Source: an uncultured Alphaproteobacteria bacterium
GTDB taxonomy: Bacteria; Pseudomonadota; Alphaproteobacteria; Bin95
Length of the DNA stretch: 64,000 nt
Assembly: GCA_963807085.1 (NCBI GenBank)
Contig: CAWEBB010000026.1
Span: forward strand, 314-64,313
Reading direction: 5' to 3'
Shown: in pieces, positions 2,186 to 64,000 of the stretch
Layout of the letters: every line of letters begins with the position of its first letter
Position numbering within the stretch: the first letter of the stretch is position 1
Made by a program: the position numbers and the translations under genes
Notes under the pieces: generated by a model
The model's input: the letters and a program-made list of their open reading frames with translations, nothing else
Databases searched by the model: none
What the model was told of the DNA's origin: nothing

Positions 2186-2215
2186 CTGCTCCCTTTACGT
2201 CTGCCGGTTATATAG

Positions 2216-5200: not shown

Positions 5201-5278
5201 CTCTCTCAGGTCGAGGCGGCGGCGGCCGATCATGCGGCGCAGGTTATGAAGCTCTACGGCAAGCTCATCGCGGCATAG
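2216..5278 (+). CDS. glnE: Bifunctional glutamine synthetase adenylyltransferase / adenylyl-removing enzyme GlnE
   Basis: 1020-aa ORF with two nucleotidyltransferase modules (GMGKLGARELNYSSDIDLIALYD ... GYGKWGSGQLTPGSDLDMVVLYD), typical of GlnE. True start may be downstream of 2216 (possible GTG near 2328). Confidence 0.9.
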   Translation: MGRALDLCSFSAQFRICGRLHFCLAEPRPEPEKTADPVFLDTISELPLPADQAQADTAIERWQVQVAAADESEPGAADAPDAVARLDVVLATANGKALADGLFGCSSFLAGIAAQQPLFCLELFEQGPDRVWPKILALFAETSANEADAKRRLRRARKQAALAVAVGDVSGLWTVEQVTNALSEIADTSIRYALDFGLRELQARGRLDLPNPEQPAAGSGFIILGMGKLGARELNYSSDIDLIALYDPAIVPTTRPDRLAQDMVRLTQRWVDLLNERTADGFAFRTDLRLRPDPASTPPAISIPAAEFYYESAGQNWERAAMIKARVVAGDEQAGQAFLDFLRPFVWRRSLDFWAIKDIHSIKRQINAYRGGRKIAIAGHDIKVGRGGIREIEFYAQTQQLIWGGRNPALRVCPTCQALDALVSAGQVGRDTADELKACYAYLRRLEHRLQMVGDQQTQRLPPADGLDSIARFMGEADTAAFSRKVRQTLETVERHYAALFEDELELAVEGLGNLVFTGGDPDPGTLETLAGLGFKTPERVDTAVRRWHHGSLAATRSTRARQILTELMPSLIQALGDTADPDEAFGNFDHFLQGLPAGVQLFSLLHSHPDLLKLVAKICGSTPWLGKHMRRRPSVLDAVLEPEFFGPLPNASDIRDELFNWLDQAQDMQDTLDLARRYASDLTFRVGVHLLRGDTKGADAGPVLSALADQVVAAMLPVTQDAFAERHGRLPGEGLAVIGYGKWGSGQLTPGSDLDMVVLYDSVSVTTQSDGEKPLAASTYAARLTQRLMTALTSETESGRLYEVDLRLRPNGDKGPLASQMDGFANYLLNDAWTWERLALVRARFICGSPALAERFDQIRAESLTRPRAVADLAEEVNSMRQRMAATHKGESPWDVKHRRGGLVDTGFLSQFLVLAHADDEPALLGPRTTDAVAAAAADAGLLTHAEAEDLANAEMFWLGLQTLLRLTGADATPDRLERPSVQAVISNGLDLPDLSQVEAAAADHAAQVMKLYGKLIAA

Positions 5279-5290
5279 AGGTCAAGCAGA

Positions 5291-6508
5291 GTGTCGCCGG
5301 TCCGGCTTGTCATCCTGGTTTGCACGGCACAGGTATTGGCTCAAATCGGCTCCAACACCTGGCCCGCCCTCCTTCCTGGTTTGGTCGCTCAATGGCAGCT
5401 TTCCAACAGCGAGGCGGGCTGGATCACTGGGCTCATGTATTTGGCCTATACCATTTCGGTGCCGATTTTGGTCACATCGACCGACCGGATCGACCCGAAA
5501 CGGATCTATTTGTTGGGCGTCGGGCTCAGTTTTTTCGGCCATCTGGGCTTTGCGCTGTTCGCCGACGGCTTCTGGACCGCTGCCCTGTTCCGCTCCATTG
5601 CCGGTATCGGCTGGGCTGGTACCTACATGACCGGGCTCAAGCTGTTGGCCGATCGGGTGGACGGCCGCCTGCTTTCCCGCGCCACCGCCGGCCACGCCGC
5701 GAGCATTGGCATCGCCGGCGCCATCTCTTTTGTTTTTGCCGACGTGATCGCAGACCGGGGCGGCTGGCAGGCGGCGTTCATGGCCTCCGCCGCCTGCGCC
5801 GGGTTCGCCTGGATCATCGCCCTCTTCGGTACGCCCTGGCAGGAGCCTAAGCCGCGCTCCGCGGCGCGGTTGTTCGACTTTGGTCCGGTCTTCCGCAACC
5901 GGTCGGCCATGGCGTACGGCATCGCCTATTGCGTGCATACGTGGGAGATGAACGTACTGCGCGGCTGGGCCGTCGCCTTCCTTGCCTGGGTTGCGCTCAC
6001 CACCGAAACCGACACCGCCTGGCTTGCGCCGACGGTTGTCGCCATGACGATGGCGCTGGTTGGCACCGGCACCAGCATTATCGGCAATGAAATGTCCATC
6101 CGGCTTGGCCGCCAGCGCGTGGTACGCCTTGCCATGACCCTCAGCGTTGCCTGCGCGGCCACCATCGGCTTTCTGGGCCCCACCAGCTATGCGCTCGCGG
6201 TCGCTTTCGTGCTCGGCTACGGCATGGTCATCTGGCTCGATTCTTCCTCGCTGACGGCAGGTGCGGCAGGTGCAGCCGCCGCCGGCAAGCGCGGCGCGAC
6301 GCTGGCCATTCACTCCATGCTCGGCTACGGCGGCGGCTTCGCCGGCCCGCTCACCATGGGATTCATTCTTGATTGGTCAGGCGGTATGTCGGTCATGGGG
6401 TGGGGCTATGCGTTCGCCGGAACCGCGGTGGTGCTGCTCGCCGGGCGAACCGCCTTTGTCATCCTGCGTCCCCGGGATCTTGCCGGCGACCGGGCCGCGA
6501 ACGGCTAG
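5291..6508 (+). CDS. MFS-type transporter
   Basis: 405-aa polytopic membrane protein with ~12 predicted TM helices and an MFS-like layout. Confidence 0.75.
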   Translation: MSPVRLVILVCTAQVLAQIGSNTWPALLPGLVAQWQLSNSEAGWITGLMYLAYTISVPILVTSTDRIDPKRIYLLGVGLSFFGHLGFALFADGFWTAALFRSIAGIGWAGTYMTGLKLLADRVDGRLLSRATAGHAASIGIAGAISFVFADVIADRGGWQAAFMASAACAGFAWIIALFGTPWQEPKPRSAARLFDFGPVFRNRSAMAYGIAYCVHTWEMNVLRGWAVAFLAWVALTTETDTAWLAPTVVAMTMALVGTGTSIIGNEMSIRLGRQRVVRLAMTLSVACAATIGFLGPTSYALAVAFVLGYGMVIWLDSSSLTAGAAGAAAAGKRGATLAIHSMLGYGGGFAGPLTMGFILDWSGGMSVMGWGYAFAGTAVVLLAGRTAFVILRPRDLAGDRAANG

Positions 6509-6560
6509 AGCCGGTCCCGATACCAATGAACCGGGATCCGCTCTCGAACCATAAGGTGCT

Positions 6561-7232
6561 TTAGGCGGGCAAGCGCCGGTACCATAGGCCGACGAATATG
6601 CCAACGGCGAAGCCGCCGATATGTGCCCACCAGGCGACTCCGCTTTCATCGCCGCCCTGCTGGCTCATGAATACCTGGATGCCGATCCACACCAGGATAA
6701 TGACCCACGCCCGAAGCCGGATCGGCAGGAATATGGGCGTGAGCATGGTAATGCGATTCCGCGGAAACAGCGCCAGATAAGCACCCATGACACCGGCAAT
6801 CGCCCCGCTCGCACCGACGAGCACGGTCGTGGATTCCGGGAACATTGCCCCCTGCAGCAGCCCCGCGATGACGCCGCTGCCCAAATACAGAACCGCATAG
6901 CGGCTATGGTTGAGCCTGTCCTCGACCAAGGCACCGAACACATAAAGCGCAACCATGTTGGCGATCAGATGCGCGGCGCCGCCATGCAGGAACTGATACG
7001 TCACCAGCGTCAACGCGCTCGGCACCACGTCAATCGCGGGCGGGCGGGCGAGCCCCTGAAACAGCACGCCCGGAATGAAGCCGAAGGCGTAAGTCGCCTG
7101 CCACTCCGCGGGCGCCGACAATCCGCTGAGCCAGATCTGCACGATGGTGCAAAAAACGATCACGCCCCAGGTCAGATAGGGCGCCCCGATCCGGCGGAGT
7201 TGGTGGTCGCTATGGACCGGCAGGAACGGCAC
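6561..7232 (-). CDS. Rhomboid-family intramembrane serine protease
   Basis: 223 aa, multi-TM, with GASGAIAGVMGAYLALFP (GxSG catalytic serine) and an HLIANMVALYVFG-like histidine helix. Confidence 0.85.
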   Translation of the reverse strand: MPFLPVHSDHQLRRIGAPYLTWGVIVFCTIVQIWLSGLSAPAEWQATYAFGFIPGVLFQGLARPPAIDVVPSALTLVTYQFLHGGAAHLIANMVALYVFGALVEDRLNHSRYAVLYLGSGVIAGLLQGAMFPESTTVLVGASGAIAGVMGAYLALFPRNRITMLTPIFLPIRLRAWVIILVWIGIQVFMSQQGGDESGVAWWAHIGGFAVGIFVGLWYRRLPA

Positions 7233-7247
7233 TGTCCGCCCGCTCCC

Positions 7248-8051
7248 CTATGCGCTGAGCAACGGCCGCGGCGGCGCGTCAGCCAGATCGCACCAGACGG
7301 GCGTGTGGTCGCTGGCCTTGGGCTTGTCCCGGGGCTCCTTGTCGATGCCGGCACCGGTCAGCCGGTCGGCCGCCGCAGGCGACAGCAGCAGATGGTCGAT
7401 GCGGATGCCCTCGCCCCGATGCCAGCGGCCTTTCTGATAGTCCCAAAAGCTGTACGCCCCAAGCTGATGGGGGTGCATGGCGCGGAAGGCGTCCGTCAGC
7501 CCGAGATGGACCATCCGGCGGAACGCCCGGCGCGTGGGCAGCATGTAGAGTGCATCATCCTTCCACGCCGCCACGTCCCAACAATCCCCCGGCGCCGGGA
7601 TAACGTTATAGTCGCCGGCCAGCACGACCGGGCCGCCGCCGCGAAGCAACTCGCGCGCCCTCGTCTCCAGACGCTCCATCCAGGCAAGCTTGTAGTCATA
7701 CTTGGCCGGATCGTCCGGCGGGTTGCCGTTGGGCAGGTAGAGGCATCCGATCCGAACGCCCTCTACCGACGCCTCTACATACCGGGCCTGCTCGTCGGCA
7801 TCATCCCCGGGCAGACCCTCGCTCACGTCCTCGAGGCCTAGCCGCGAGAGCAGGGCAACGCCGTTATAGGCCTTCTGTCCGACGACCGCCGATGCGAAGC
7901 CGAATTTCTCGAATGCCGCTGCCGGGAACTGGTCCGCCTCGCACTTGATCTCCTGCAGGCAGACAACGTCGGCGTTATCGGCGGCCAGCCACTCGCAGAC
8001 GGCCTCCAGGCGCACTTTGATCGAATTGACGTTCCAGGTCGCGATACGCAT
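7248..8051 (-). CDS. xthA: Exodeoxyribonuclease III
   Basis: 267 aa starting MRIATWNVNSIKVRLEAVCEWL...VVCLQEIK, the characteristic ExoIII/APE family N-terminus. Confidence 0.9.
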   Translation of the reverse strand: MRIATWNVNSIKVRLEAVCEWLAADNADVVCLQEIKCEADQFPAAAFEKFGFASAVVGQKAYNGVALLSRLGLEDVSEGLPGDDADEQARYVEASVEGVRIGCLYLPNGNPPDDPAKYDYKLAWMERLETRARELLRGGGPVVLAGDYNVIPAPGDCWDVAAWKDDALYMLPTRRAFRRMVHLGLTDAFRAMHPHQLGAYSFWDYQKGRWHRGEGIRIDHLLLSPAAADRLTGAGIDKEPRDKPKASDHTPVWCDLADAPPRPLLSA

Positions 8052-10364: not shown

Positions 10365-10733
10365 CTATTTCTTTTTTCCGGCAATTGCACGGGCCTTACC
10401 CTTGCGGGTGCGGGCGTTGGTATGGGTACGTTGTCCGCGGACCGGTAGGTTGCGGCGATGACGCAAACCGCGATAGCAGGCCATGTCCATCAGGCGTTTG
10501 ATCGCCATGGCCCGTTCGCGGCGCAAATCGCCTTCCACCATCACATCGGAATCGATGGTTTCGCGGATGCGCATAACTTCATCCTCGGTCAACTCGTTCA
10601 CCCGGCGATCGGGCGGCAAGTCCAGCTTGTCGCAGATCCGTTGCGATGTGTGACGGCCGATGCCGTGGATGTAGGTCAGCGCGATCAATACGCGCTTATT
10701 TGTTGGTATATTGACGCCGGCGATACGCGCCAC
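10365..10733 (-). CDS. rpsM: 30S ribosomal protein S13
   Basis: 122 aa; [26 protein letters not shown]. Confidence 0.95.
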
Positions 10734-10888: not shown

Positions 10889-11464
10889 TCAAGCCAATCC
10901 TAGCGCTTTCTCCAATTCCGCCGTCACCGTTTCGATCGGGGCCATGCCGTCGATCCGGGTCAGCATTCCCTTACTGTCATAGTACGGCACGATCGGCGCC
11001 GTCTGTTCGTGATAGACGGCGATGCGATTGGCGAGCGTCTGCGCATTGTCATCCGCCCGTTCGCCGCCGCTTTCCGCTACCCGCTTCTGGACGCGTTCCA
11101 GCAAAATGCCCTCGTCAACCGTCAACTCGACCACGGCGTCCAATTTGCGCCCCTTTTCGGCGAGCATCTCGTCCAGCGCCCGCGCCTGCGCCGTGGTACG
11201 CGGAAAGCCATCCAAAATGACACCGTTTCGCGCCGCATCCGGCTCGTCCAGCCGTTCGGAGATGATCTGGATCACCACCTCGTCTGACACCAGGTCGCCG
11301 GCTTCCATAATCGCCTTGGCCTTCCGGCCAATGTCGCTGCCGGATGCGACGGCGGCGCGCAACATGTCTCCCGTAGAGAGCTGCACCAAGCCGTGCCGGT
11401 CCTGCAAGCGTTGGGCTTGTGTCCCCTTCCCCGCCCCTGGCGGACCCAGCAGAATGATGTTCAT
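10889..11464 (-). CDS. adk: Adenylate kinase (short type, 191 aa)
   Basis: [21 protein letters not shown]-loop start. The ATG at 11464 overlaps the secY stop (ATGA). The longer 333-aa ORF in the track is an upstream extension into the secY antisense frame. Confidence 0.9.
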
Positions 11465-12804
11465 CGGCGGCGCCCCTTTAGCTTCGATTTCTTGATCAAG
11501 CCCTCGTACTGATGCGCCAACAGGTGAGACTGGATTTGGGCGACCGTATCCATCGTCACGCTGACGACGATCAAGAGGCTTGTTCCGCCGAAGTAGAACG
11601 GTACCGAGTACTGCGTGATCAGCAACTCCGGCAACAGACAGACCGCCGCGAGATAGGCCGCGCCAACCACCGTGAGGCGGGTCAGGACATAGTCTAAATA
11701 TTCCGCAGTATTCTTGCCGGGGCGGATGCCGGGAATATAGCCGCCATAGCGTTTCAGATTGTCTGCTGTCTCCTCCGGATTGAAGACAATTGCCGTGTAG
11801 AAGAAACAGAAAAACACGATCATGCCGATATAGAAGGCCAGATAGAGCGGCTGTCCGTGCCCCATATAGGCCGAGACCAGGTTCAGCCATTCCGAATCCG
11901 ACTGGCCCCCGAAATTCGCGATAGTGACCGGCATCAGCAACAGCGAACTGGCGAAGATCGGCGGGATCACGCCGGCGGTGTTCAGCTTCAGCGGCAGATG
12001 AGAGCTGTCACCCCCGTACATTTTGTTGCCGACCTGGCGCTTTGGATACTGGACGATCAGGCGGCGCTGGGCGCGTTCCATGAACACGATGCCGGCGACA
12101 ACGGCGATCGCCATCACCAGGAACAGCACGATCACGCCAGCCGAGAGTGCGCCGGTGCGGGACAGTTCGAACATGCTGGCGAGCGCGGTCGGCAGGTTCG
12201 CGACGATGCCGGCAAAAATGATCAGCGAAATGCCGTTGCCGATGCCGCGGGCCGTGATCTGCTCGCCCAGCCACATCAGGAACATGGTGCCGCCGACAAT
12301 GGTGATGACGGTCGTGATGCGGAAAAACATGCCCGGATCCAGAACCGCGCCGCCGCTGGGGCCACGCATGCCTTCGACGCCGACCGCCAGACCATAGGCC
12401 TGTACGGCCGCCAGCAGCACCGTCCCATACCGGGTGTATTGGTTGATTTTTTTGCGCCCGGTCTCGCCCTCTTTCTTCAGCGCTTCCAGCTTCGGAGAAA
12501 CGGCAGTGAGCAACTGCATGATGATCGAGGCCGAAATGTACGGCATGATGTTGAGCGCGAAAATCGTCATGCGGCCCAGCGCACCGCCGGAGAACATGTC
12601 GAACATGCCCAGCAAACCGCCCGCCTGGCTGTCGAAAATCTCCGACAGCACGGCGGCGTCGATACCCGGAATCGGGATATACGTGCCCAGCCGGTAAACG
12701 ATCAGCGCGCCCAGCGTAAACCAGATCCGCTGTTTCAACTCAGTCGCCTTGGAAAAGGCGCCGAAGTTTACGTTGCTAGCTAGGCGCTCTGCGGCGGAGA
12801 CCAT
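11461..12804 (-). CDS. secY: Preprotein translocase subunit SecY
   Basis: 447 aa, 10-TM SecY architecture; sits between rplO and adk as in spc operons. Confidence 0.95.
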
Positions 12805-12851
12805 GCTTGTGCCTCAATTCTCGGACGGGCCGGGTAAGCGTGCGGGCAGCC

Positions 12852-13337
12852 TTACTCGGCAGACGCGGCAGGAGCGGCCAACGTGACGCTGCCGCCGGCT
12901 TTCTCTACCGCGGCAACCGCCGGGCGGGAGCCGCTGTCGACCGAGATATTGACCTGCGCAGACAGCGTTCCATTGGCCAACAGGCGGATTGGCCCGCCGT
13001 TCCTGCGCACCAGACCGGCCGCGGCCAGCGCATCCCGGTCGATCGCGACATTGGCATCCAGCTTGCCGGCATCGATCACCTTTTGCAGGCGGCCGACATT
13101 GACCAACTGATAGCTGACCTTGTTGCGCGGGTTGAAGCCGCGCCGCGGCATGCGGCGATAGATCGGCATCTGGCCGCCTTCGAAGCCATTGATGGTGACA
13201 CCGGAGCGCGCCTTCTGGCCCTTCTGCCCGCGGGTCGACGTCTTCCCCATGCCGGAGCCGATGCCCCGGCCGACCCGTGCCCGCTTCTTGCGCGCGCCAG
13301 GCTTGTCGCTGATTTCGTTCAAACGCATGCGATGCAT
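12852..13337 (-). CDS. rplO: 50S ribosomal protein L15
   Basis: 161 aa; KKRARVGRGIGSGMGKTSTRGQKGQKARSG. Confidence 0.95.
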   Translation of the reverse strand: MHRMRLNEISDKPGARKKRARVGRGIGSGMGKTSTRGQKGQKARSGVTINGFEGGQMPIYRRMPRRGFNPRNKVSYQLVNVGRLQKVIDAGKLDANVAIDRDALAAAGLVRRNGGPIRLLANGTLSAQVNISVDSGSRPAVAAVEKAGGSVTLAAPAASAE

Positions 13338-13374
13338 CCCTGATATCGGACCTCGGTGCCGGCGGCGCCCGGGC

Positions 13375-13566
13375 TCAAGATACCTCTTCGACTTTCACCA
13401 TATGGTGCACTTTGCGCAGCATGCCGCGAATTGCCGGAGTATCTTCCAGAACGCGGCTGCTGTTCATTTTGTTCAGCCCCAGGCCCACCAGGGTCTGGCG
13501 CTGATCTGCTGGCCGGCGGCTCGGGCTTCCGGTCTGCGTTACCTTAAGGCGTCTGGTCTCTGCCAT
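13375..13566 (-). CDS. rpmD: 50S ribosomal protein L30
   Basis: 63 aa ([31 protein letters not shown]...) from the internal ATG at 13566. The 105-aa track ORF is over-extended into rpsE. Confidence 0.85.
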
Positions 13567-54617: not shown

Positions 54618-54755
54618 GCGACTTTTTTTTCAGAAAAGTTAAGCGGCCCGCAACTTTCTCTGACACGCCGCCGAATACCTGATGAACGGTGCTGCGCAGC
54701 GTTGCCGCTGCAAGCCCTGCTCATTCGCAAACAGGCGAAGTCGGAGGAGAGATTA

Positions 54756-55490
54756 ATGAAAGCACGAACCATTACCACCGTCGCGACGGCGGCCGGTTGT
54801 TTGCTTGTGGGCGCCACATCGGCCCACGCCTTGACCACCCGTTATTCGGTCAATTTCAACGAACTGAACAATTCCGGGGTTTCCGGCGGTGGCATGCTGG
54901 TTTTCGATGACGTGAGCAATCTGCTCACGGTGAATTACTCGGTCACCGGATTGGATGCGGGCGTTCATCCTCAGCATATCCACGGTTTGTTGTCCGGGGG
55001 ACCCGGCAGCACTGCACTTAATTCCGTCACCCCGACCCTCGCCAACGACAGCGACGGCGACGGATTTCTGGAGACCGTGGAGGGCGTTCCTGCGTACGGC
55101 GACGTGCTGCTGTCGCTGTTCAACACGCCCGGAGACCCGAACACATTCCCGATGGTCGATGCTTCCGGCGCCTTGAATTACAATGTCACCTTTGACCTTG
55201 CCAGTTCGAGCATTTTCACCCCCTCGCCGGCAACAGGTACGGTCTATAGCATGACCGATCTGATGCCGCTCGATTTCCGGGAAATCGTCATTCACGGCCG
55301 GAACGTCGCCGCCGGTCTTGGCGGCGGGCAGTTCGAGGTCGATGGCACCCAACCGGGCGGTTTCGTGCCGCTGTTGCCGGTCGCCGCGGCCGAGATCGAA
55401 GCCGTGCCAATTCCGGCGTCTGTCTTTTCGATGTTGGCCGCCGGCGGTTTGATCGCCGCTGTCGGTCGCCGGGCGCGGAAACGCGCCTGA
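54756..55490 (+). CDS. Secreted CHRD-domain protein with C-terminal VPxPA/PEP-CTERM-like sorting tail
   Basis: 244 aa from ATG 54756 (GGAGGAG RBS). Signal peptide MKARTITTVATAAGCLLVGATSAHA, CHRD-like GVHPQHIHGLLSGGPGS, C-terminus VPIPASVFSMLAAGGLIAAVGRRARKRA (VPxPA + TM + Arg cluster). Confidence 0.6.
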   Translation: MKARTITTVATAAGCLLVGATSAHALTTRYSVNFNELNNSGVSGGGMLVFDDVSNLLTVNYSVTGLDAGVHPQHIHGLLSGGPGSTALNSVTPTLANDSDGDGFLETVEGVPAYGDVLLSLFNTPGDPNTFPMVDASGALNYNVTFDLASSSIFTPSPATGTVYSMTDLMPLDFREIVIHGRNVAAGLGGGQFEVDGTQPGGFVPLLPVAAAEIEAVPIPASVFSMLAAGGLIAAVGRRARKRA

Positions 55491-55624
55491 CCTGAGGCGG
55501 GCGGCACTCCCGCCCGCTACTACCCGGTTGCTTGTCTACCTGCGGCTCGATCAAGAAGATCGGGCCGTTTTTTTGTTCGCCCGCAGGATGCCGCAGTCTC
55601 GCCATCGCGCAATATACCCGTCGC

Positions 55625-56284
55625 CTACTCCACCTTGACGATGCGCCCGTGATAGATGGGCTCTGTCGGCTGACCGGTCGGCGAGCCGCCCTGTGGCTCC
55701 AGGCTGATGGCGAACAGATCGCCCGGTCCAGTCTTCAATGTTTTAAGCGCCTCCGGCGCGTTTGGCAGCAGGCCGAGCGAGTACGGCCGCTCGGCCCCCT
55801 CGGGCAGGTGCCACATTTCCAGCGAGCGGCCCGGCGGCGCCTGGATGTTGACCGGAACGATGGTGGCGATGCCCGTACCGGTGTCGAACTGAACGATCAG
55901 CCCCGCCTCCCCATCGGCATCGGACGTGACAACGGCCACATAAGTTTCCGACGGCGGCGGCTGCCAATAGTCGACCGCCACATAGACCGCGATCGCAGCG
56001 GCGAGCGAGCCCGCCAGCACCGTCGCCCGCTTCCAGCGGGAGGCGCGTTTGCGGGCAGCGCCCAGATCGGCGATCATGTCTTCGACGGCGATGCGCCCGG
56101 AGATCCGGCCGAACAGACCTTCCGGCGGCTCGACCGGCTCTACCGCTTCCAGCAGCGGCGCCAGCCGGCGCTCCCATGCTTCCCGCGCGGCGCGGTCGGC
56201 GGCGTTTTCCTGGCCCTCGGGCTCGGTGCCCAGCGCGCGTTCGGCGGCGTCGAGATCGCGTTCTTCGTCGGCCATGTCAATCAC
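55625..56284 (-). CDS. Anti-sigma factor (RskA-like, single TM)
   Basis: 219 aa; start overlaps the ECF sigma stop; N-terminal anti-sigma region, one TM (VLAGSLAAAIAVYVAV), extracytoplasmic C-terminal domain. Confidence 0.65.
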   Translation of the reverse strand: MIDMADEERDLDAAERALGTEPEGQENAADRAAREAWERRLAPLLEAVEPVEPPEGLFGRISGRIAVEDMIADLGAARKRASRWKRATVLAGSLAAAIAVYVAVDYWQPPPSETYVAVVTSDADGEAGLIVQFDTGTGIATIVPVNIQAPPGRSLEMWHLPEGAERPYSLGLLPNAPEALKTLKTGPGDLFAISLEPQGGSPTGQPTEPIYHGRIVKVE

Positions 56285-56816
56285 TCAGACAAGTCCGGAG
56301 CGCGGCTAATGCTCTGCGCAGGCGGGCCTTGATCGTGTTCACGGGCGCTTCGTAGCGCTGGGATAGTTCCTCCCGAGATGCTCCCTCATAATAGGCCAAC
56401 AGCACAGCCTCGCGGTCCTGGTCCTGCAACTCGTCCAAACAGGCGAGCAAGGCCAGATAGTCGACAGGATCGGTTTCGCCACCCTCTCGGGCCTTCCCCG
56501 CCAGCGCCGTCAACGCGTCGCTATCGCCGAGGGTGGAGGGATTTCGCCCCCGCTGCCGCAGCAAGTCGACCGCGCGGTTGCGGACGATGATCGCCATCCA
56601 CGCTTCGGCGCGGCCACGCTGCGGATCGAAGTGTTCAGCCTTCCGCCAGATCTCGACAAAGCCTTCCTGTAGCGCGTCTTCCGCCAAGTCCCGTTCGCGG
56701 CAAACCTGCAAGGCGACGCCGAACAGCTTGGCCGCACACGCACTATAGAGCGCCTGGAACGCGGCCCGATCCGCGTTTGCGATCGCTTTTAGCAGGTCGT
56801 CGTTGGGCACACTCAT
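56277..56816 (-). CDS. ECF-type RNA polymerase sigma-70 family factor
   Basis: 179 aa from the internal ATG at 56816; region 2 (LAEDALQEGFVEIWRKAEHFD) and region 4 HTH (GASREELSQRYEAPVNTIKARLRRA). Confidence 0.8.
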   Translation of the reverse strand: MSVPNDDLLKAIANADRAAFQALYSACAAKLFGVALQVCRERDLAEDALQEGFVEIWRKAEHFDPQRGRAEAWMAIIVRNRAVDLLRQRGRNPSTLGDSDALTALAGKAREGGETDPVDYLALLACLDELQDQDREAVLLAYYEGASREELSQRYEAPVNTIKARLRRALAALRTCLSD

Positions 56817-56978
56817 GGAATGGCTTGTGACCTCGGCATATATCACCCTTACGCTGGTTGCATGCCAAAGGTTACGCGCCCGCGGCAAACCTGGAGGTGT
56901 GACTACCACAGGAGTCGGCTGAAGGCATCCGCTTATGTGAGGCCGGCTTATGTGAAACGGGCGCCCCCGGCGGCTTTC

Positions 56979-57710
56979 TTAGAATTCGATGCCACGCTCC
57001 TTGGCCCAATCCTTTACCCGCCCCAGGGTCGGATTGTCGGGCCGCTCGCGGTAATAAGGGATCAGGGGGTAGAGCTTGTCGAACAGGCGGCGCAGTTCGG
57101 CGGTCGGGTCCGGGTTCTCGTCCACTCGCAGGTTGACGATGGCGAAGCCCGCGTTCTCATAGACCAGCAGGCCGGCGGAGCGTTGCCCGTCCGGCTGTCC
57201 GCCCGCCGCCGCACCGGCCTCGATCGCCAGCATCAGCCGGGTTTCGATGTCGTCGGCCTCTGCCTGTTGCATGGCGTCTGCCATGGCCTGGACCACCTGC
57301 TCGCCCGCGATGGCGTTGCCCATGACGATCCAGCCCGGCCCGGTCTTGTGCCCCGCCCAATCCGAGTTATTCTCGCCGGTCCGCACGGCGGTGTGACCCC
57401 AGCGGTCGATAATGCCGATCTGGCGGTAGCCGATATAGGGGTCGCTCGCCTCCAGGTCCGACAGCACCCGCGCGGCCGGATAGCCCAAATCGAGCAGGCG
57501 CAGCGCCAGAGGCCCAAGCCGCGGATCGGTATTTGCTTGGGTCGCGACCGCGCCGATATTGGGCGCAATGAACGGCACGCGCCCGCCAACGCCCATCTCG
57601 CCTGTCGCGACAGAGATGCCCAGCCGGCCGGTACGCGGGCAGCGGCCGATGGCGGTAAAGGTATGGTGATAGGAGCCGAGCGCGAAGCGGAATGACGCGG
57701 GGATGACACT
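56979..57710 (-). CDS. DUF1028 family protein
   Basis: 243 aa from ATG 57710 (AGGAGA RBS). MSVIPASFRFALGSY...[43 protein letters not shown] matches the DUF1028 (Ntn-hydrolase-like) N-terminus as remembered. Confidence 0.6.
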   Translation of the reverse strand, partial: SVIPASFRFALGSYHHTFTAIGRCPRTGRLGISVATGEMGVGGRVPFIAPNIGAVATQANTDPRLGPLALRLLDLGYPAARVLSDLEASDPYIGYRQIGIIDRWGHTAVRTGENNSDWAGHKTGPGWIVMGNAIAGEQVVQAMADAMQQAEADDIETRLMLAIEAGAAAGGQPDGQRSAGLLVYENAGFAIVNLRVDENPDPTAELRRLFDKLYPLIPYYRERPDNPTLGRVKDWAKERGIEF

Positions 57711-57738
57711 CATCGCTTTTCTCCTGTTCGCGCGCGGC

Positions 57739-58569
57739 TCAGACCGGCCGTTCGCCCTTGATGGTGACGCGGTGGCCTTTGCGCTCTTCCGGCCAGTAGT
57801 CCCACATGGCCAGATGCTGGGCGCAGCGATTGTCCCAAAAGGCCATATCATTGACCTCCCACTTGTGCCGCACCTGGAAGCGCTCCCCTGCCATGTGCCG
57901 GCAGAGGAAGCCCAGGATCGCATCGCTCTCCGGTCTGGTCAGCCCCTTGATTCTGGTGGTGAAGGCGCCGTTCACGTAAAGCGCCTTTTTGCCGGTCACG
58001 GGATGGGTGCGCACCACCGGATGCACCGCGCTCGGATAGACCTTGCCCGCATCGTCCACGCCCCGATCGGAGTAACGGCCGCGGTAGATGTGCTCGCTCT
58101 CATGCACGGCCTGAAGGGGCCCGAGAAATTCCTTCATCTCGTCTGAAAGCGCGTCATAAGCCGCATACATGCTGGCGAACAGCGTGTCGCCGCCAGTGGA
58201 CGGCAGTTGGTGCAATTGCAGCATGGTGCCGAGCGGTGGTTCCTCATCGCAACTCACATCGGTGTGCCAGACGCTGCCGTTGGCGATCTTCGAGTCCTTG
58301 TGCGTGTGGATCACGAAGATCTCCGGATAGTCCGGGTGCGTGGGCGCAGCGGGATGGACATGCAGATCGCCGAAGCGGCGGCCGAGCGCGATCTGTTTGT
58401 CCGGCGGGATAGGCTGCTGCTCTTTGAAGAACACCACCAGATGGTCGGCGAAAGCCTGGTGGATTTCGTCGAACTGCTGGTTGGAGACGTCCCGCGTCAG
58501 GTCGATGCCGCGGATCTCCGCCCCGATCGTCGGGTTCAGCGGCTTCACGTCGAGGGTTTGATAGCTCAT
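57739..58569 (-). CDS. TauD/TfdA-family Fe(II)/2-oxoglutarate-dependent dioxygenase
   Basis: 276 aa from ATG 58569; WHTDVSCDEEPPLGTMLQL...GGDTLFASM...RVTIKGERP: H-x-D...H facial triad context of taurine dioxygenase relatives. Confidence 0.8.
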   Translation of the reverse strand: MSYQTLDVKPLNPTIGAEIRGIDLTRDVSNQQFDEIHQAFADHLVVFFKEQQPIPPDKQIALGRRFGDLHVHPAAPTHPDYPEIFVIHTHKDSKIANGSVWHTDVSCDEEPPLGTMLQLHQLPSTGGDTLFASMYAAYDALSDEMKEFLGPLQAVHESEHIYRGRYSDRGVDDAGKVYPSAVHPVVRTHPVTGKKALYVNGAFTTRIKGLTRPESDAILGFLCRHMAGERFQVRHKWEVNDMAFWDNRCAQHLAMWDYWPEERKGHRVTIKGERPV

Positions 58570-58594
58570 GGCGCTCGCCCTTCTCCGTCCGCAA

Positions 58595-59428
58595 TCAATA
58601 GGGGCGGTCGCCGGCAACGGTGACCCGATAGCCGCTCCGCACCTGGGGAAAGTAGTCCCACATGGCCAGATGCTGCACGGCCCGGTTGTCCCAGAACGCC
58701 ACCGAGTCCTTTGCCCAGGAGAAGCGGCAAACGAACTGCTCTTTGCGGTTATGGGCGTAAAGGAATTCGAGAATGGCTTTGCTCTCGTCCTCCGGGATGC
58801 CGATGATGTACTGCGTGAATACCGGGTTGACGAAAATGCCCTTCTTGCCGGTCACCGGATGGGTGCGGATCACCGGGTGGTCGGCGTGCGGGAACTGCCT
58901 GGTGTCGTCCTTGCCGTCGATGCGGGCGCGGCGGTTATAGTTCGGCGTGCCGTCGTGCCGTGCGGTCAGGCCGCCAAGGAACTGCTTCATCGGCTCGCTC
59001 AAAGCCTCATAGGCGGCGTTGGAGCTGGCGAACAGCGTGTCGCCACCGCTCGGCGGAACGGTATGCAGATGCAGGATGGAGCCCATCGGCGGCTCCGGAT
59101 CGCACGACACATCGGAATGCCAGCGGTGGCCGGCTACCTGTTTCGAGTTCTCGTCGGCGTGGATGCGCAGGATCTCCGGGTGCCCTTCCGGCCCCGGCGC
59201 CGACGGATGAATGTGCAGCGGGCCGAAGCGGCGGCCGAAATCCTTGTGCTGCTCCAGGGTCATGTCCTGGTCGCGAAAAAAGATGACCTGGTGGGCCATC
59301 AGCGCGTCGTGGATTTCCTGGAACTGCTGGTTTCCGAGCGGCTCCGCCAGCTTCACGCCGTGCACCTCGGCGCCAACGGTCGGGGTCAGCGGCCGGACTT
59401 CGATGGTTTCGTAATGGATCGCGGACAT
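58595..59428 (-). CDS. TauD/TfdA-family Fe(II)/2-oxoglutarate-dependent dioxygenase (tandem paralogue)
   Basis: 277 aa; WHSDVSCDPEPPMGSILHL...GGDTLFASS...; roughly 45-50% identical to the neighbour by eye. Confidence 0.8.
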   Translation of the reverse strand: MSAIHYETIEVRPLTPTVGAEVHGVKLAEPLGNQQFQEIHDALMAHQVIFFRDQDMTLEQHKDFGRRFGPLHIHPSAPGPEGHPEILRIHADENSKQVAGHRWHSDVSCDPEPPMGSILHLHTVPPSGGDTLFASSNAAYEALSEPMKQFLGGLTARHDGTPNYNRRARIDGKDDTRQFPHADHPVIRTHPVTGKKGIFVNPVFTQYIIGIPEDESKAILEFLYAHNRKEQFVCRFSWAKDSVAFWDNRAVQHLAMWDYFPQVRSGYRVTVAGDRPY

Positions 59429-59676
59429 AAGCTGTTCCTTTGCGGCGGGATCTTCCTCGACTGGACGAGGATTGTTGGTTGTTGGGGACGATTACATCAC
59501 CGGCGACGTGCTCTGACCAGCCCCGTCTTTCCGAAAGGCGAATCTTGAGCCAAACAATTGGCGCAATGAAAGCTTGTCTCGTTTAATGACGGCTCTCAAG
59601 GGCGGCTCTGGCGTTGAGCGCCGCAGGCACCTATTCTTGCCGGAAATGAAACCGCACATGCACGAGGATCGCCCCG

Positions 59677-60843
59677 ATGGTTCAACCCCGCCTGCCGCTT
59701 GAAGGCATCAAGGTCGTCGAAGTCGGCCAGGCCCTGGCCGGCCCGCTCTCCGGCGTCATCCTGGCCGATCTGGGAGCCGAGGTGATCAAGATCGAAAAGC
59801 CGGGTGGCGGCGACGATGCCCGGCTGTGGGGACCGATGGCGACGGAAGACGCCTCGCTGATGTTCAACGCCACCAACCGCTCAAAAAAATCGGTGATCCT
59901 GGACCTGAAAGCACCGGAGGACCTGGAGAAGCTATACGCCCTGATCGGCGAGGCCGACATCTGCATCCAGAACCTGCGTGCCGGCGTGGCGGACAAGGGC
60001 GGCTTCGGCGCGGCCGACCTGATGGCGGTCAACCCGCGCCTGATCTATTGCCAGATCTCTGCGTTCGGCAGCGAGGGGCCGCTTGCCCTGCATCCGGGCA
60101 TGGACCCGCTGGCGCAGGCCTATGGCGGCGTCATGACCCTGACCGGCCGGGCGGACGATCCGCCCACCTTCTGCGCCCCCGCGATCAACGACACTGCGAC
60201 CGGCATGTGGGCCGTCATCGGCGCGCTGGCGGCGCTGGAGGAGCGGCGGCATACGGGCAAGGGCAAGGCCATCGGCTGCTCGCTGTTTGAAAGCGCGGTG
60301 CAATGGGTGAACGGACCATTGAATGCCTATCTGCACAACGGCACCGCGCCGGTGCGCACCGGAGCCGCCTCGCCGAACCTGATTCCTTATCAGGTGTTCG
60401 AGACCGCCGACCGCCCGATCTGCCTGGCCGCGGGCAATAACCGCCTGTTTCTGCGGTTCGCCGAGGCCGTGGGCAAGCCTGAATGGTGCGAGGACGCCCG
60501 TTTCAACGCGCCCGGCGCCCGGTCCGATAATCGCGAGACCCTGGTCCCGCTGATCGCCGAAGTGTTGGCGACCGACACCTGCGCCGCCTGGATCGAGCGG
60601 CTGGAAGCGGTGGGCGTGCCCTGCTCGCCCGTGAACGACATTCCGGCCCTTGCCGAGTCCGAGCAACTGGCGGCGGTCAAGATGGTGCAGCCGGTGCCGG
60701 GCCAAAATTTCACCGTCACCGGCCTGCCGATCACGCTGGATGGCGAGCGACCGCCGATCCGCGCGGCCTCCCCCCGCCTCGGCGAGCATACGGACGAGGT
60801 GCTGGACGCGCTGAATAGGGGCGGGGCGAAGGCCGCCCAATAA
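59677..60843 (+). CDS. CoA-transferase family III (CaiB/BaiF) protein
   Basis: 388 aa; LEGIKVVEVGQALAGPLSGVILADLGAEVIKIEKPGGGD. Confidence 0.85.
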   Translation: MVQPRLPLEGIKVVEVGQALAGPLSGVILADLGAEVIKIEKPGGGDDARLWGPMATEDASLMFNATNRSKKSVILDLKAPEDLEKLYALIGEADICIQNLRAGVADKGGFGAADLMAVNPRLIYCQISAFGSEGPLALHPGMDPLAQAYGGVMTLTGRADDPPTFCAPAINDTATGMWAVIGALAALEERRHTGKGKAIGCSLFESAVQWVNGPLNAYLHNGTAPVRTGAASPNLIPYQVFETADRPICLAAGNNRLFLRFAEAVGKPEWCEDARFNAPGARSDNRETLVPLIAEVLATDTCAAWIERLEAVGVPCSPVNDIPALAESEQLAAVKMVQPVPGQNFTVTGLPITLDGERPPIRAASPRLGEHTDEVLDALNRGGAKAAQ

Positions 60844-61054
60844 TCGCCCCTGCCCTTCCCCTGCGGGCCTCGCTTCATCGAGGCCGGTTCGGCGGCGGAT
60901 GGATGTCCATCCGTCGCGATCACAGTATTGTGTTTGCGAAAAGAACGGGGTCCCGGATTGAGAGGCAAGGGCCGGAGAGCCACTTCGGTAAGTCAGGGTT
61001 GGGGGCTTTCAGGCCTCGCCGGCGAGTCAACGGTGGCGAGACGAAAGGAATCTT

Positions 61055-61564
61055 ATGATCGACAAACTGTTTTGTGCGGCCGCGCTTTCCGCAGGTATCG
61101 TTCTGACGGCGCCGGCCGCCGGTGCGGATGAGGCACAAACCACAATGCACAACAGCTCGGGTGAAGAGGTAGGATCGGTAACACTGGTCCCAACGGAAAA
61201 CGGCGTCCTGTTGCATGCGAAGCTCGAGAATATGCCGGAAGGCACGCACGCCTTTCATATCCACGAGACGGGGCAGTGTGATCCGCCGTCGTTCACATCG
61301 GCCGGCGGTCACCATAACCCGACTGCGGCGGACCATGGCTTCTTCTCCAACGGCGGCGTTCACGCGGGCGACATGCCGAATATCCATGTGCCGGCATCGG
61401 GCTCCTTGGAAATCGAGGTGCTGAATGTTTGGGTCGGGCTGGACGGCTTGCTGCTGGATGACGACGGTGCGGCGATCGTCGTTCATGAAGGCGCCGACGA
61501 CTACCGAACCGACCCGGCCGGTGATGCCGGCTCCCGCATAGCCTGCGGCGTCATCAAATATTGA
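61055..61564 (+). CDS. sodC: Periplasmic Cu/Zn superoxide dismutase
   Basis: 169 aa; signal peptide; HAFHIHETGQCDPPSFTSAGGHHNP...GDAGSRIACGVI. Confidence 0.9.
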   Translation: MIDKLFCAAALSAGIVLTAPAAGADEAQTTMHNSSGEEVGSVTLVPTENGVLLHAKLENMPEGTHAFHIHETGQCDPPSFTSAGGHHNPTAADHGFFSNGGVHAGDMPNIHVPASGSLEIEVLNVWVGLDGLLLDDDGAAIVVHEGADDYRTDPAGDAGSRIACGVIKY

Positions 61565-61828: not shown

Positions 61829-62440
61829 ATGACAAACCCTGCCCCCTCTCCCGAAGCCTCTCCCGAAGCGGTGCCCGCGAAAGAAGCGCCCACAACAGCC
61901 CCGCCGCCGAAGCGCAAGAACCGCGGTCCGGCGATCTTTGCGCTGTCGCTCATGATCGTCTCGGGCGGGCTCTGCTGGATCCTCTATGGCTGGGAGACGG
62001 TGCGGCACGTGCTGTTCAACGATTGGGAGCTGATGATCAACGTGCTGCCGCGCATGGCGCTGGGCGTTCTGATCTATGGCTTTCTGACCGTGCTCATTCC
62101 ACGGGACTGGGTGGCCAAACACATGGGGCACGAGGCCGGCTGGAAGGGTTTGGCGATCGGCCTGCTGGCGGGCGCGGTGGCGCCGGGCGGGCCGTGGGTG
62201 ATCTATCCGCTGGCGGTCATGCTGATCCGGTTTGGCGCCGAAGTGGGGGCGGTCGTGACCTTCATGATGTCGTGGAGCTTGCTTGGCATGAACCGGTTCC
62301 TGGTTTGGGAGGTTTCGTTTCTGGGCGAGGATATCGCTGCCATGCGGCTGCTGGTGGGCCTGCCCTTCCCCATTCTGGCGGGGCTGGCGGTGCGCTGGTT
62401 CTGGCGCGAGCAGCAATGGCCGCGGGTGTACCGGGAGTAA
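61829..62440 (+). CDS. Putative permease, N-terminal component of a two-gene DUF318-type permease
   Basis: 203 aa, 5-6 TM; the low-complexity N-terminus may mean the true start is internal. Confidence 0.55.
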   Translation: MTNPAPSPEASPEAVPAKEAPTTAPPPKRKNRGPAIFALSLMIVSGGLCWILYGWETVRHVLFNDWELMINVLPRMALGVLIYGFLTVLIPRDWVAKHMGHEAGWKGLAIGLLAGAVAPGGPWVIYPLAVMLIRFGAEVGAVVTFMMSWSLLGMNRFLVWEVSFLGEDIAAMRLLVGLPFPILAGLAVRWFWREQQWPRVYRE

Positions 62441-62463: not shown

Positions 62464-62952
62464 ATGGGAATCTCCACCATTATCCTGATTGCGGCCGTGG
62501 TCGGTATGGGTCTGGCGGTACTGGTTCATCCGGAGCGCACGCTGGGCGAGGCGCTGAAGATTTCCGGAAAGCAGGCGTTGTTCCTGATCCCTGTGATCAT
62601 TCCCGCCATCATCTCGGCCGGGTTCGTCGCGCAGCTCCTGCCCAGCGAGGAAATTGGCCGGTGGGTGGGCGCGGACTCGGGTTTTACAGGTGCGATGATC
62701 GCCGCCGCTTTCGGCGCGCTGATGCCGACCGGGCCGATGCTGATCCTGCCGGTGGTGGCGGCCCTGCTGAGCGCCAATGCGGGCGAGGCGCAGATGCTGG
62801 CGCTGCTAACCGCCTGGATGATGATGAACGTGCAGCGCCTGGTGCTTTACGACCTGCCGCTGGCGGGCTTCCCCCTGACCGCAAGGCGTTACAGCATGGG
62901 CCTGATCGCAACCCCGCTTGCGGCATTGCTCGCGCTGGCGGTGGTGGGATAG
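62464..62952 (+). CDS. Putative permease, C-terminal component of the two-gene DUF318-type permease
   Basis: 162 aa, 4-5 TM, own AAGGA RBS 24 nt after the upstream stop. Confidence 0.55.
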   Translation: MGISTIILIAAVVGMGLAVLVHPERTLGEALKISGKQALFLIPVIIPAIISAGFVAQLLPSEEIGRWVGADSGFTGAMIAAAFGALMPTGPMLILPVVAALLSANAGEAQMLALLTAWMMMNVQRLVLYDLPLAGFPLTARRYSMGLIATPLAALLALAVVG

Positions 62953-62976: not shown

Positions 62977-63876
62977 TCAATACTTGAACTGGTTCTCTCG
63001 ATGCCACGCCAAGAAACGCGGATGTGGCTTGTCGGATTCTCGTTCGGGGCGATTGATGAAGCCGTTCTTATTGATGATTGCATGAATTGCTGACAAGTCG
63101 TTTACCTGACGGGAAATTAGAACCTCAAGATTGTCAGCAATGCTTATTAATCCGCGGTCGAACATCCAGTGCGCGGTACCGGACAATGCGATGCCATTCG
63201 TTAAAATGTCCGGCCCATTGTTCTCGACAGGTTGAATATGGGCAGCTTCAACCTCTGCCCGTCCACCTCCATTAATCAGTTTGAGACTGGTAATAGCACA
63301 GCGTTCGTCATAGGCGGCAAGCACAATTTGCCGAAAATTTCGATCACGAACGATGCGCGATCCTAGATATTCTGAACGCTCGCGTTCGTTGTAAAAATAT
63401 GGCGGCGAATCGAATTCGGATAGGCCGTCGACAGGGAGATTATCGTCAAGTCGCGGTAACAAAGAAGCAGAGGTGCGGAGACCGAGGTTTATAATCCGGT
63501 CAAAATCCGCTACTGGAATAGTACGCACAGCGGCCTGCGCGCGTCCTGATACGCTCCCACCCTTATTCAACACGCTACGTTCTGGAACACCATAAGTGCT
63601 GCGGAATGGAACCGGGCTACCAAACTCCAGATAGCTGCTCTTTTCGATGATCGCGATAAACATTTTCGGGATTGTTGGATCCGGAACTATCTCTTGGACC
63701 TTGGCGAGGGCGAAATATCCCTTTGAACGCTTCACCTTGGATGGCTCAAGATAGATTATCCAATCGCCTACGCATTGTTGTGCTCGGCTCAGGTAATTTT
63801 GAGGAAACTGGTATTGCTCAGAGGGTATGTCTTCGTAAACTGAATCTGACCGGTGGATGAATACGCCTTTGGCCAT
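62977..63876 (-). CDS. HNH-family endonuclease with uncharacterised N-terminal domain (possible modification-dependent/type IV restriction enzyme)
   Basis: 299 aa from ATG 63876; C-terminal HNH motif EVEAAHIQPVENNGPDILTNGIALSGTAHWMFDRGLISI. N-terminal ~150 aa (VFIHRSDSVYEDIPSEQYQFPQNYL...GDWIIYLEP) look like a DNA-recognition module. Gene is ~47-50% GC against a ~65% background. Confidence 0.65.
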   Translation of the reverse strand: MAKGVFIHRSDSVYEDIPSEQYQFPQNYLSRAQQCVGDWIIYLEPSKVKRSKGYFALAKVQEIVPDPTIPKMFIAIIEKSSYLEFGSPVPFRSTYGVPERSVLNKGGSVSGRAQAAVRTIPVADFDRIINLGLRTSASLLPRLDDNLPVDGLSEFDSPPYFYNERERSEYLGSRIVRDRNFRQIVLAAYDERCAITSLKLINGGGRAEVEAAHIQPVENNGPDILTNGIALSGTAHWMFDRGLISIADNLEVLISRQVNDLSAIHAIINKNGFINRPERESDKPHPRFLAWHRENQFKY

Positions 63877-64000
63877 TTTGCTACCAAATGGGTGGGGTTG
63901 GCCTGGATATGATAACCATAAATTGAGCAGAGGAAAGCCAGAACATGAAAGAATGCGCAACGGGTTACGGACTGGTCGAAGGGCCGGTCTGGCACAAGGA

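Follow-up and report, generated by a model that had tools for sequence, protein, structure and literature searches.

Positions 55625 to 60843 of a 64,000-nucleotide stretch of an uncultured alphaproteobacterium (contig CAWEBB010000026.1; this whole stretch is referred to below as the window) carry, on the minus strand, two tandem TauD-family dioxygenase genes (TauD-1 and TauD-2), a DUF1028 gene and the genes for an extracytoplasmic function (ECF) sigma factor and its RskA-like anti-sigma factor, with a CaiB-family coenzyme A (CoA)-transferase gene transcribed divergently from TauD-1. The original prediction read these six genes as one module, apparently under a dedicated ECF sigma factor. All six are present with strong Pfam matches, and the open reading frames and Pfam domains agree with the gene order and strands first described. 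Our analysis favours, with fair though far from complete confidence, two units that are functionally separate and adjoin each other in one lineage: a catabolic or sulfur-scavenging divergon, and a SigK/RskA-type pair that appears to transcribe itself. Gene content, the pattern of conservation, the promoter motifs and the active-site residues were observed directly; substrate class, enzyme roles and regulatory independence are interpretation. The cluster combines known enzyme families into an uncharacterised variant, and its conservation is confined to a narrow range of genomes; TauD-1 itself is abundant. The finding is a modest one because nothing that we found requires a new mechanism and the link to the sigma factor does not hold, so that the window presents an ordinary case of genomic proximity rather than a new pathway under sigma control.

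The sole ECF-type promoter candidate in this region precedes the sigma gene. GTAACC-N16-CGTAA has one exact match in the 64-kb window, where 0.08 would be expected by chance, and this site (GTAACCTTTGGCATGCAACCAGCGTAAGG; 56847-56875, minus strand) lies within the 162 nt that separate DUF1028 from the sigma gene, its end 30 nt upstream of the ATG; we presume that it drives autoregulation of the sigma factor. A matching architecture is present upstream of the sigma gene in two related loci, as GCAACCTTT-N-CGTATGG in L010 and as GAATCC-N16-CGTACCG in L015. Across ten loci the pattern AACC(T/C)TT-N11-14-CG[TAC]A has four sites, two before the sigma gene (window and L010) and two before DUF7282 genes (L016 and L017), and none upstream of TauD, DUF1028 or CaiB. 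Both strict and degenerate ECF motif searches before TauD-1 (59428) and DUF1028 (57713), the gene starts at which the original prediction would have such a motif lie, likewise found none. One relaxed match elsewhere in the window, at 10427-10453, falls within rpsM and was dismissed as chance.

What does precede TauD-1 is an element of another kind. At 59491-59522 (minus strand), an alignment of six loci (window, L010, L001, L011, L094 and L099) identifies a promoter-like element, GGCTGGTC-N-GGTGATGTAAT, with the consensus CT(G/A)G-N17-TGTA(A/G/C)T, which is not ECF-like. The sigma gene is adjacent in the window and L010, the element occurs without it in L001, L011 and L099, and in L094 the contig ends inside DUF1028. 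In L011 the element stays with TauD-1 despite the insertion of a flavin monooxygenase (FMO) gene upstream. Loci that carry the cluster and no sigma gene are L011, L001/L002 and L099/L100, and L093 has none downstream of its DUF1028 gene; homologues of the sigma/anti-sigma pair at 53-61 % identity, for their part, have unrelated neighbours, with no TauD or DUF1028 among them. A sigma-70 promoter scan returned no sites. We infer that the enzyme operon is not under the sigma factor because no ECF motif lies upstream of it, because the TauD-1 element is a different one, and because gene content varies across relatives.

Several observations weigh against this separation. The genes for DUF1028, sigma and anti-sigma are adjacent on the same strand in the window, L010 and L015, with gaps of 93-162 nt, and in L015 the DUF1028-sigma adjacency is kept although the downstream flank differs; the adjacency is probably also present on a Logan contig of 3,650 bp in which both P0001 and P0122 seem to be encoded. 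The terminator scan found no intrinsic terminator between DUF1028 and the sigma gene, and read-through is therefore possible. In the canonical mpt83-sigK-rskA cassette the target gene lies directly upstream of sigK (PMC7509140), which is the position that DUF1028 occupies here, and both promoter elements are predictions from sequence motifs. All of this would suit a SigK-like ECF sigma that serves as dedicated regulator of TauD-TauD-DUF1028 (and of CaiB), either with DUF1028/TauD in place of an mpt83-type upstream target or with the sigma genes expressed by read-through from the TauD operon. We nevertheless regard dedicated control, in either variant, as quite improbable: no ECF motif precedes TauD-1, TauD-2 or DUF1028 in any locus, the conserved TauD-1 element is of the other type and is found in sigma-less loci too, the cluster occurs without a sigma gene in four genomes, and distant sigma pairs adjoin DUF7282 genes that bear the motif. 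For annotation, the lesson is that dedicated control should not be concluded from the mere presence of an ECF sigma/anti-sigma pair beside an enzyme operon; it is the position of the motifs, together with comparison across genomes, that separates the two units here.

Taken by itself, the sigma/anti-sigma pair appears to be of the SigK/RskA type. The sigma gene (56277-56816, minus strand; 179 amino acids) encodes regions 2 and 4 only, with Pfam Sigma70_r2 at residues 54-122 and Sigma70_r4_2 at residues 152-204 of the long open reading frame. Its top NCBIfam matches are PRK12537, PRK12514 and SigK PRK09646, every sigma equivalog scoring below its cutoff, and its closest solved structure is Mycobacterium tuberculosis SigK (4NQW, E 3e-25), to which both SigK redox cysteines can be aligned (llaCLdeL and LRtCL). 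These two cysteines characterise the ECF18/ECF19 clade (PMC7826278, PMC7509140), equivalents of SigK C133/C183 occurring in 94 % of the first and 56 % of the second of two groups (PMC7509140). One nucleotide separates the sigma stop codon from the anti-sigma ATG, and given this gap the two genes are probably translationally coupled. The anti-sigma protein (55625-56275/56284, minus strand; 216 amino acids) consists of an N-terminal part that binds the sigma factor in the cytoplasm, a single hydrophobic segment across the membrane and, on the extracytoplasmic side, an RskA_C domain (residues 94-210; Pfam E 6e-17). It is 100 % identical to a recorded protein of 216 amino acids (P0121), its sequence is without any cysteine and therefore has no zinc motif, it matches the NCBIfam antisigma model NF052375 at E 8.5e-21, below the cutoff, and a sequence search of the PDB returned no solved structure for it.

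The resemblance to SigK-RskA of M. tuberculosis thus consists of a two-domain ECF sigma with a single-pass, RskA_C-bearing anti-sigma immediately after it, of SigK as nearest structure, of both redox cysteines and of a probable self-promoter: four features of that type are found, and the mpt83 cassette is not. The window pair differs in that no mpt83 or fasciclin gene adjoins it (no fasciclin domain was detected in the flanking open reading frames scanned), in that its upstream neighbour is DUF1028, without an ECF promoter, and in that its distant alphaproteobacterial homologues adjoin DUF7282 genes. The latter, at 4855-5259 (minus strand) in L016 and 6751-7164 (minus strand) in L017, encode small secreted products, 67 % identical to each other, and flank sigma/anti-sigma pairs 55-61 % identical to that of the window. 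AACCTTT-N13-CGnA motifs lie upstream of them at 5356-5379 and 7222-7245, respectively. DUF7282 genes are likely to be a conserved target of this sigma family, and a search of the window for a DUF7282 homologue, as a local target, found none at E <= 1. Because of this absence and of the distribution of the motif, the window pair looks like an ordinary autoregulated SigK/RskA-type unit with its targets elsewhere. The sigma factor would transcribe its own genes from its own ECF promoter, with a regulon located elsewhere in the genome, and by analogy with SigK-RskA the membrane anti-sigma would hold it until an extracytoplasmic or redox signal arrives.

The second unit, the divergon, is recognisable by its persistence among relatives, whose gene content we established with tblastn and gene calls. 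In the window its minus-strand arm comprises TauD-1 (58595-59428), TauD-2 (57739-58569) and DUF1028 (56979-57713), separated by two gaps of 25 nt each, and its plus-strand arm begins with CaiB (59677-60843). Downstream of CaiB on the plus strand follow three genes that the original prediction had missed: the Cu/Zn superoxide dismutase gene SodC (61055-61564; Pfam Sod_Cu E 3e-36) and two half-size permease genes of the ArsP_1 family (61829-62440 and 62464-62952). Seven loci, from six independent genomes or assemblies, have CaiB divergent from TauD-1, and in five of the seven the permease pair comes after CaiB. L010 is fully syntenic with the window, sigma pair included. L015 has TauD-1, DUF1028 and the sigma pair, with no TauD-2 and a different downstream flank. 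L011 has CaiB facing FMO, TauD-1, TauD-2, an AMP-binding-thioesterase gene and DUF1028, and no sigma pair. L001/L002, also lacking the sigma pair, has an enoyl-CoA hydratase gene, Mem_trans, two ArsP genes and CaiB facing TauD-1 and DUF1028. In L094, two ArsP genes, SodC and CaiB face TauD-1, TauD-2 and DUF1028, within which the contig ends; L093 carries a DUF1028 C-terminus with no sigma pair downstream. Finally, L099/L100 has an enoyl-CoA hydratase gene, two ArsP genes and CaiB facing TauD-1 and TauD-2, followed by cytochrome oxidase genes, with neither DUF1028 nor the sigma pair.

What emerges, among related bacteria of marine type, is a stable core of CaiB-ArsP_1-ArsP_1, sometimes with enoyl-CoA hydratase next, facing TauD-1, usually with TauD-2 next. 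The most conserved gene is TauD-1, 82-93 % identical in relatives; TauD-2 was not found in L001 or L015. In L001, L010, L011, L094 and L099, CaiB shares 84-86 % identity with the window gene and is transcribed divergently from TauD-1. The permease pair (75-89 %) stands directly downstream of CaiB in L001, L010, L094 and L099; in the last of these the gaps measure 14-86 nt. SodC, between CaiB and the permease pair, is a variable member, present in L094 (53 %) and missing from L001, L099 and L010. The view of TauD-TauD-DUF1028 with divergent CaiB as an uncharacterised layout is borne out, since it recurs in the window, L010, L011 and L094, without TauD-2 in L001/L002 and without DUF1028 in L099/L100, and a literature search gave no description of it. 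As to conservation of the neighbourhood as a whole, the CaiB/TauD-1 core recurs, whereas DUF1028 (missing in one locus, L099/L100) and the sigma gene (missing in four genomes) are inconstant members.

At the level of TauD-1 alone the distribution is much wider. The TauD-1 cluster holds 184 sequences at identities of at least 90 %, and proteins at this level come from metagenome-assembled genomes (MAGs) labelled Pseudomonadales, Gammaproteobacteria and Alphaproteobacteria, on up to 59 contigs; such mixed labels suggest either horizontal spread or errors of binning or labelling. Turning to individual relatives, L011, a 90 % relative, has gained a flavin monooxygenase of the FMO/Baeyer-Villiger type (1943-3637) and an AMP-binding enzyme (5628-7720) with a thioesterase domain fused to it or following it, the frame being apparently shifted in the assembly.

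The two dioxygenases (TauD-1, 277 amino acids, Pfam TauD E 1e-70; TauD-2, 276 amino acids, E 9e-73; both minus strand) are paralogues, 51 % identical, and are assigned to the Fe(II)/2-oxoglutarate-dependent family. E. coli TauD is the top match of both, at 241 and 254 bits (45-50 % range). Aligned to the E. coli structure 1GQW, both paralogues keep the iron ligands H99, D101 and H255 (WH(S/T)DV and QH) and the 2-oxoglutarate-binding arginine R266, and both also keep H70 and R270 (LH(I/V)HP and (Y/H)RVT). In E. coli TauD we take His70 and Arg270 to bind the sulfonate anion, and Tyr73, Asn95 and Ser158 to bind the amine. The amine-binding set is not kept: Y73 is replaced by alanine in both paralogues, N95 by glycine in TauD-1 (with an alignment-dependent outcome in TauD-2), and S158 by glycine in TauD-1, with a gap in TauD-2. 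Against the NCBIfam taurine dioxygenase model (cutoff 313 bits) TauD-2 scores 301.5 and TauD-1 285.7, both below. A tauABC-type transporter is likewise wanting, no ABC transporter genes having been found in the window from 50 to 64 kb or in related loci. Judged by their predicted proteins and neighbours, the two genes depart from a true taurine dioxygenase on three counts and should not be annotated as such; taurine itself is not favoured as substrate. Compared with TauD of E. coli (tauABCD; 1GQW, 1OS7), then, the window enzymes share fold, family, iron ligands, 2-oxoglutarate arginine, His70 and Arg270, and differ in lacking Tyr73 and tauABC, in scoring below the equivalog cutoff, in being tandemly duplicated and in having a CoA-transferase and a split permease as partners.

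Other members of the TauD/TfdA family are more distant. The alkylsulfatase AtsK of Pseudomonas putida and the aryloxyalkanoate dioxygenases RdpA/SdpA, which use anionic non-amino substrates, score 140-205 bits, and the window has no sulfatase or herbicide-degradation context. Evidence of a different sort comes from a TauD-1 orthologue of 72 % identity (L101/L102, 1-6825), last in a string of eight genes that includes a fragment resembling the sulfite dehydrogenases SorA/SorT, a c-type cytochrome, one end of which is SorB-like, a dehydrogenase of the Ldh_2 family, a TctB-TctA-TctC transporter and one gene of no assigned family. From its gene content this string looks like a candidate sulfonate utilisation operon, and the position of the orthologue beside sulfite-dehydrogenase-like genes fits an enzyme that releases sulfite.

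The CoA-transferase (388 amino acids, plus strand) belongs to family III (CaiB/Frc-type) and has a full-length CoA_transf_3 domain (Pfam E 1e-114; residues 8-372 against profile positions 1-366 of 366). It scores below every NCBIfam equivalog cutoff, the best being succinate-glutarate CoA-transferase at 271 against 750, and its closest structures are formyl-CoA transferase 10UH, CaiB/BaiF 4ED9, SUGCT 9BR7 and YfdE 4HL6. Its closest relatives are enzymes that use dicarboxylates; unlike Frc/YfdW, YfdE, SUGCT and succinate-glutarate CoA-transferase, which it resembles in this way, it has no oxalyl-CoA decarboxylase, glutaryl-CoA dehydrogenase or desulfinase gene nearby. Sulfur analogues of succinate are within the reach of this family, as is evident from Act of Variovorax paradoxus, a family III CoA-transferase that acts on the succinate analogue 3-sulfinopropionate with succinyl-CoA as donor (PMC6370202); we compare the window enzyme with Act by described activity. 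The original prediction had named a sulfonate, or an amino-acid or carnitine-like compound, as possible substrate. The sulfonate is the best supported of these. A carnitine-like compound is not favoured, and a carnitine reading of CaiB was rejected, the L-carnitine CoA-transferase model giving 94 bits against a cutoff of 413.

DUF1028 (244 amino acids, minus strand; Pfam E 6.5e-57, 193 bits against a cutoff of 26) was described at the outset as an N-terminal nucleophile (Ntn)-hydrolase-like family without known function, and this description stands: PDB 2IMH is its top match both by sequence (E 3e-16) and by fold, and no functional paper was found, a literature search on DUF1028 and COG3342 having returned nothing on function (one mention of DUF1028 was unrelated). 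Its AlphaFold model (predicted local distance difference test score, pLDDT, 89) has 2IMH as nearest fold, followed by proteasome beta, Anbu and HslV. T18, F19 and T20 are near-invariant in 34 homologues, Thr18 opens the first beta-strand, and the 17 residues before it are of low model confidence and propeptide-like, making Thr18 a putative nucleophile after removal of a 17-residue leader. We therefore assign the protein, as modelled, to the Thr-type Ntn hydrolases, given the near-invariant Thr18 behind a leader and the proximity of the model to these folds. SPO2555 of Ruegeria (Silicibacter) pomeroyi, the protein of 2IMH, shares Pfam family and fold (Foldseek E 2e-16, TM-score 0.73-0.81) and differs in being only 30 % identical and in lacking the 17-residue extension before the threonine.

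DUF1028 has nonetheless to be set apart from the core. Its subfamily is tightly conserved, at 60-95 % identity over many taxa, and close homologues (73-85 %) have as neighbours luciferase-like monooxygenases, amidases, ABC transporters or succinate-dehydrogenase-like flavoproteins. An alignment-based metagenome scan gave 80 DUF1028 loci (44-82 %), in which TauD, CaiB and sigma neighbours were absent, the close relative L094 excepted. DUF1028 is thus no core member of the cluster, as homologues at 44-85 % stand in many unrelated contexts, and judging by these neighbourhoods it is an accessory, clade-specific addition to the cluster. Two further features of DUF1028 loci were recorded. Several marine metagenome contigs (L032, 2172-3645; L033, 7001-8482; L073, 574-1939) carry two DUF1028 paralogues in tandem, at 60-68 % and 48-49 % identity to the protein of the window, and gene tables list double-length CoA_transf_3 proteins (727-732 amino acids) 6-8 kb from DUF1028 homologues in two otherwise unrelated contexts (a JGI locus, 11213-13411, and L009, 14096-16279).

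What might the divergon do? The role that we consider likeliest is the oxygenolytic desulfonation of a sulfonate that has no amino group and is probably carboxylated, coupled to handling of the acid at the CoA level. The unit would serve catabolism or sulfur scavenging, with CaiB and the split ArsP_1 permease expressed in one direction and TauD-1, TauD-2 and DUF1028 in the other, the TauD arm being transcribed from the conserved non-ECF promoter-like element. The TauD paralogues would act on a non-amino substrate, a carboxylated sulfonate being the most likely one, and hydroxylate the carbon to which its anionic group is attached, giving sulfite and an aldehyde; the CoA-transferase would activate the carboxylate substrate or its carbon product, the ArsP_1 permease would move the substrate or sulfite, and DUF1028 may free the substrate from an amide conjugate. 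If this chemistry is right, it would amount to a widespread, unannotated route by which marine bacteria obtain sulfur (and carbon) from non-amino sulfonates, and would offer an initial hint about the large DUF1028 family. A bolder version, which we offer as speculation with little expectation that all of it will hold, is that the divergon constitutes an undescribed oxygen-dependent desulfonation route of the sulfolactate, sulfopropionate or sulfoacetate type in marine Alpha- and Gammaproteobacteria, fed in one clade by DUF1028 through cleavage of amide conjugates; this, if true, would give DUF1028 its first functional context.

Some of the evidence sits uneasily with desulfonation. The sulfite link comes from one orthologous locus, at 72 % identity and without CaiB; H70 and R270 could equally bind a carboxylate, and aryloxyalkanoate dioxygenases score nearly as well as TauD. 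The first permease half has a weak likeness to SO_0444-type Cu/Zn efflux and the pair to the SO_0444 and SaoE efflux families, so these weakly metal-efflux-like genes, which in the window stand beside SodC, might together with SodC be metal-related and no part of the TauD cluster. One alternative is that the cluster handles an organic acid without sulfur – a dicarboxylate, an oxalate- or glutarate-like compound, an alkoxy or aryloxy acid, or a substrate of the carnitine/butyrobetaine type – with the TauD enzymes acting as hydroxylases or ether-cleaving enzymes and the CoA-transferase (joined by enoyl-CoA hydratase in relatives) doing the main carbon processing. The nearest CoA-transferases, of formyl-CoA/oxalate, SUGCT, YfdE and succinate-glutarate types, would suit such a role, as would the FMO and AMP-binding/thioesterase genes added in L011, and RdpA-type dioxygenases reach about 200 bits against TauD-1, where TauD reaches 241. 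We consider this alternative a serious rival, if on the unlikely side: both paralogues are closest to true TauD, in identity and as top PDB and NCBIfam matches, and the 72 % orthologue lies beside sulfite-dehydrogenase-like genes. Butyrobetaine hydroxylases, moreover, are characterised by an extra N-terminal domain, and in both paralogues a single TauD domain spans the whole protein (Pfam), with no such extension.

A more sceptical position is that the adjacency of the six genes is functionally meaningless: DUF1028, CaiB and the two TauD genes would act independently and share nothing but inherited synteny in one young clade. All loci with the arrangement are indeed close relatives (DUF1028 at least 80 % and TauD-1 at least 82 % identical), DUF1028 contexts are otherwise very diverse, and at 72 % TauD-1 identity CaiB is gone. 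We find this position doubtful, however, since the 25-nt gaps among TauD-1, TauD-2 and DUF1028 suggest co-transcription, the CaiB/TauD-1 divergon persists where genes have been inserted (L011), where TauD-2 (L001) or DUF1028 (L099) has been lost and where the flanks have changed, and the occurrence of TauD-1 at 90 % identity or more across differently labelled MAGs suggests a unit that is selected or mobile. A divergon concerned with a sulfonate, next to an independent sigma/anti-sigma pair, accordingly remains the reading that we prefer.

As regards genomic setting, the window is chromosomal, since a block of ribosomal protein, rpoA and secY genes (rpsM, rpsK, rpoA, secY) lies at 8-13 kb. Start sites of the genes under study match the gene calls of the source record, which holds exact proteins of 216, 179, 244, 277 and 388 amino acids on an 82,441-bp contig. 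A plasmid megablast with window positions 55000-61500 gave no matches, and a plasmid tblastn with TauD-1 gave matches at no more than 60 % identity, with little information on context. The closest relatives of the window, in a contig search with the DUF1028 protein, are alphaproteobacterial MAGs (five loci). At the edge of the sigma/anti-sigma unit, a gene convergent with that of the anti-sigma factor (54702-55490, plus strand) encodes a secreted protein without a Pfam match, 72 % conserved in L010; it has a signal peptide (MKARTITTVATAAGCLLVGATSAHA) and a C-terminal tail (VPIPASVFSMLAAGGLIAAVGRRARKRA) that resembles a PEP-CTERM/VPLPA-CTERM sorting signal, and the one convincing terminator-like hairpin with a T-run, at 55542-55568 (plus strand), is assigned to it. 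Beyond the permease pair, a gene with an HNH_2 endonuclease domain (62977-63960, minus strand) lies in a segment where G+C content drops from about 64 % to 50-57 %, and it has homologues at the same position in L010 (69 %) and L094 (74 %).

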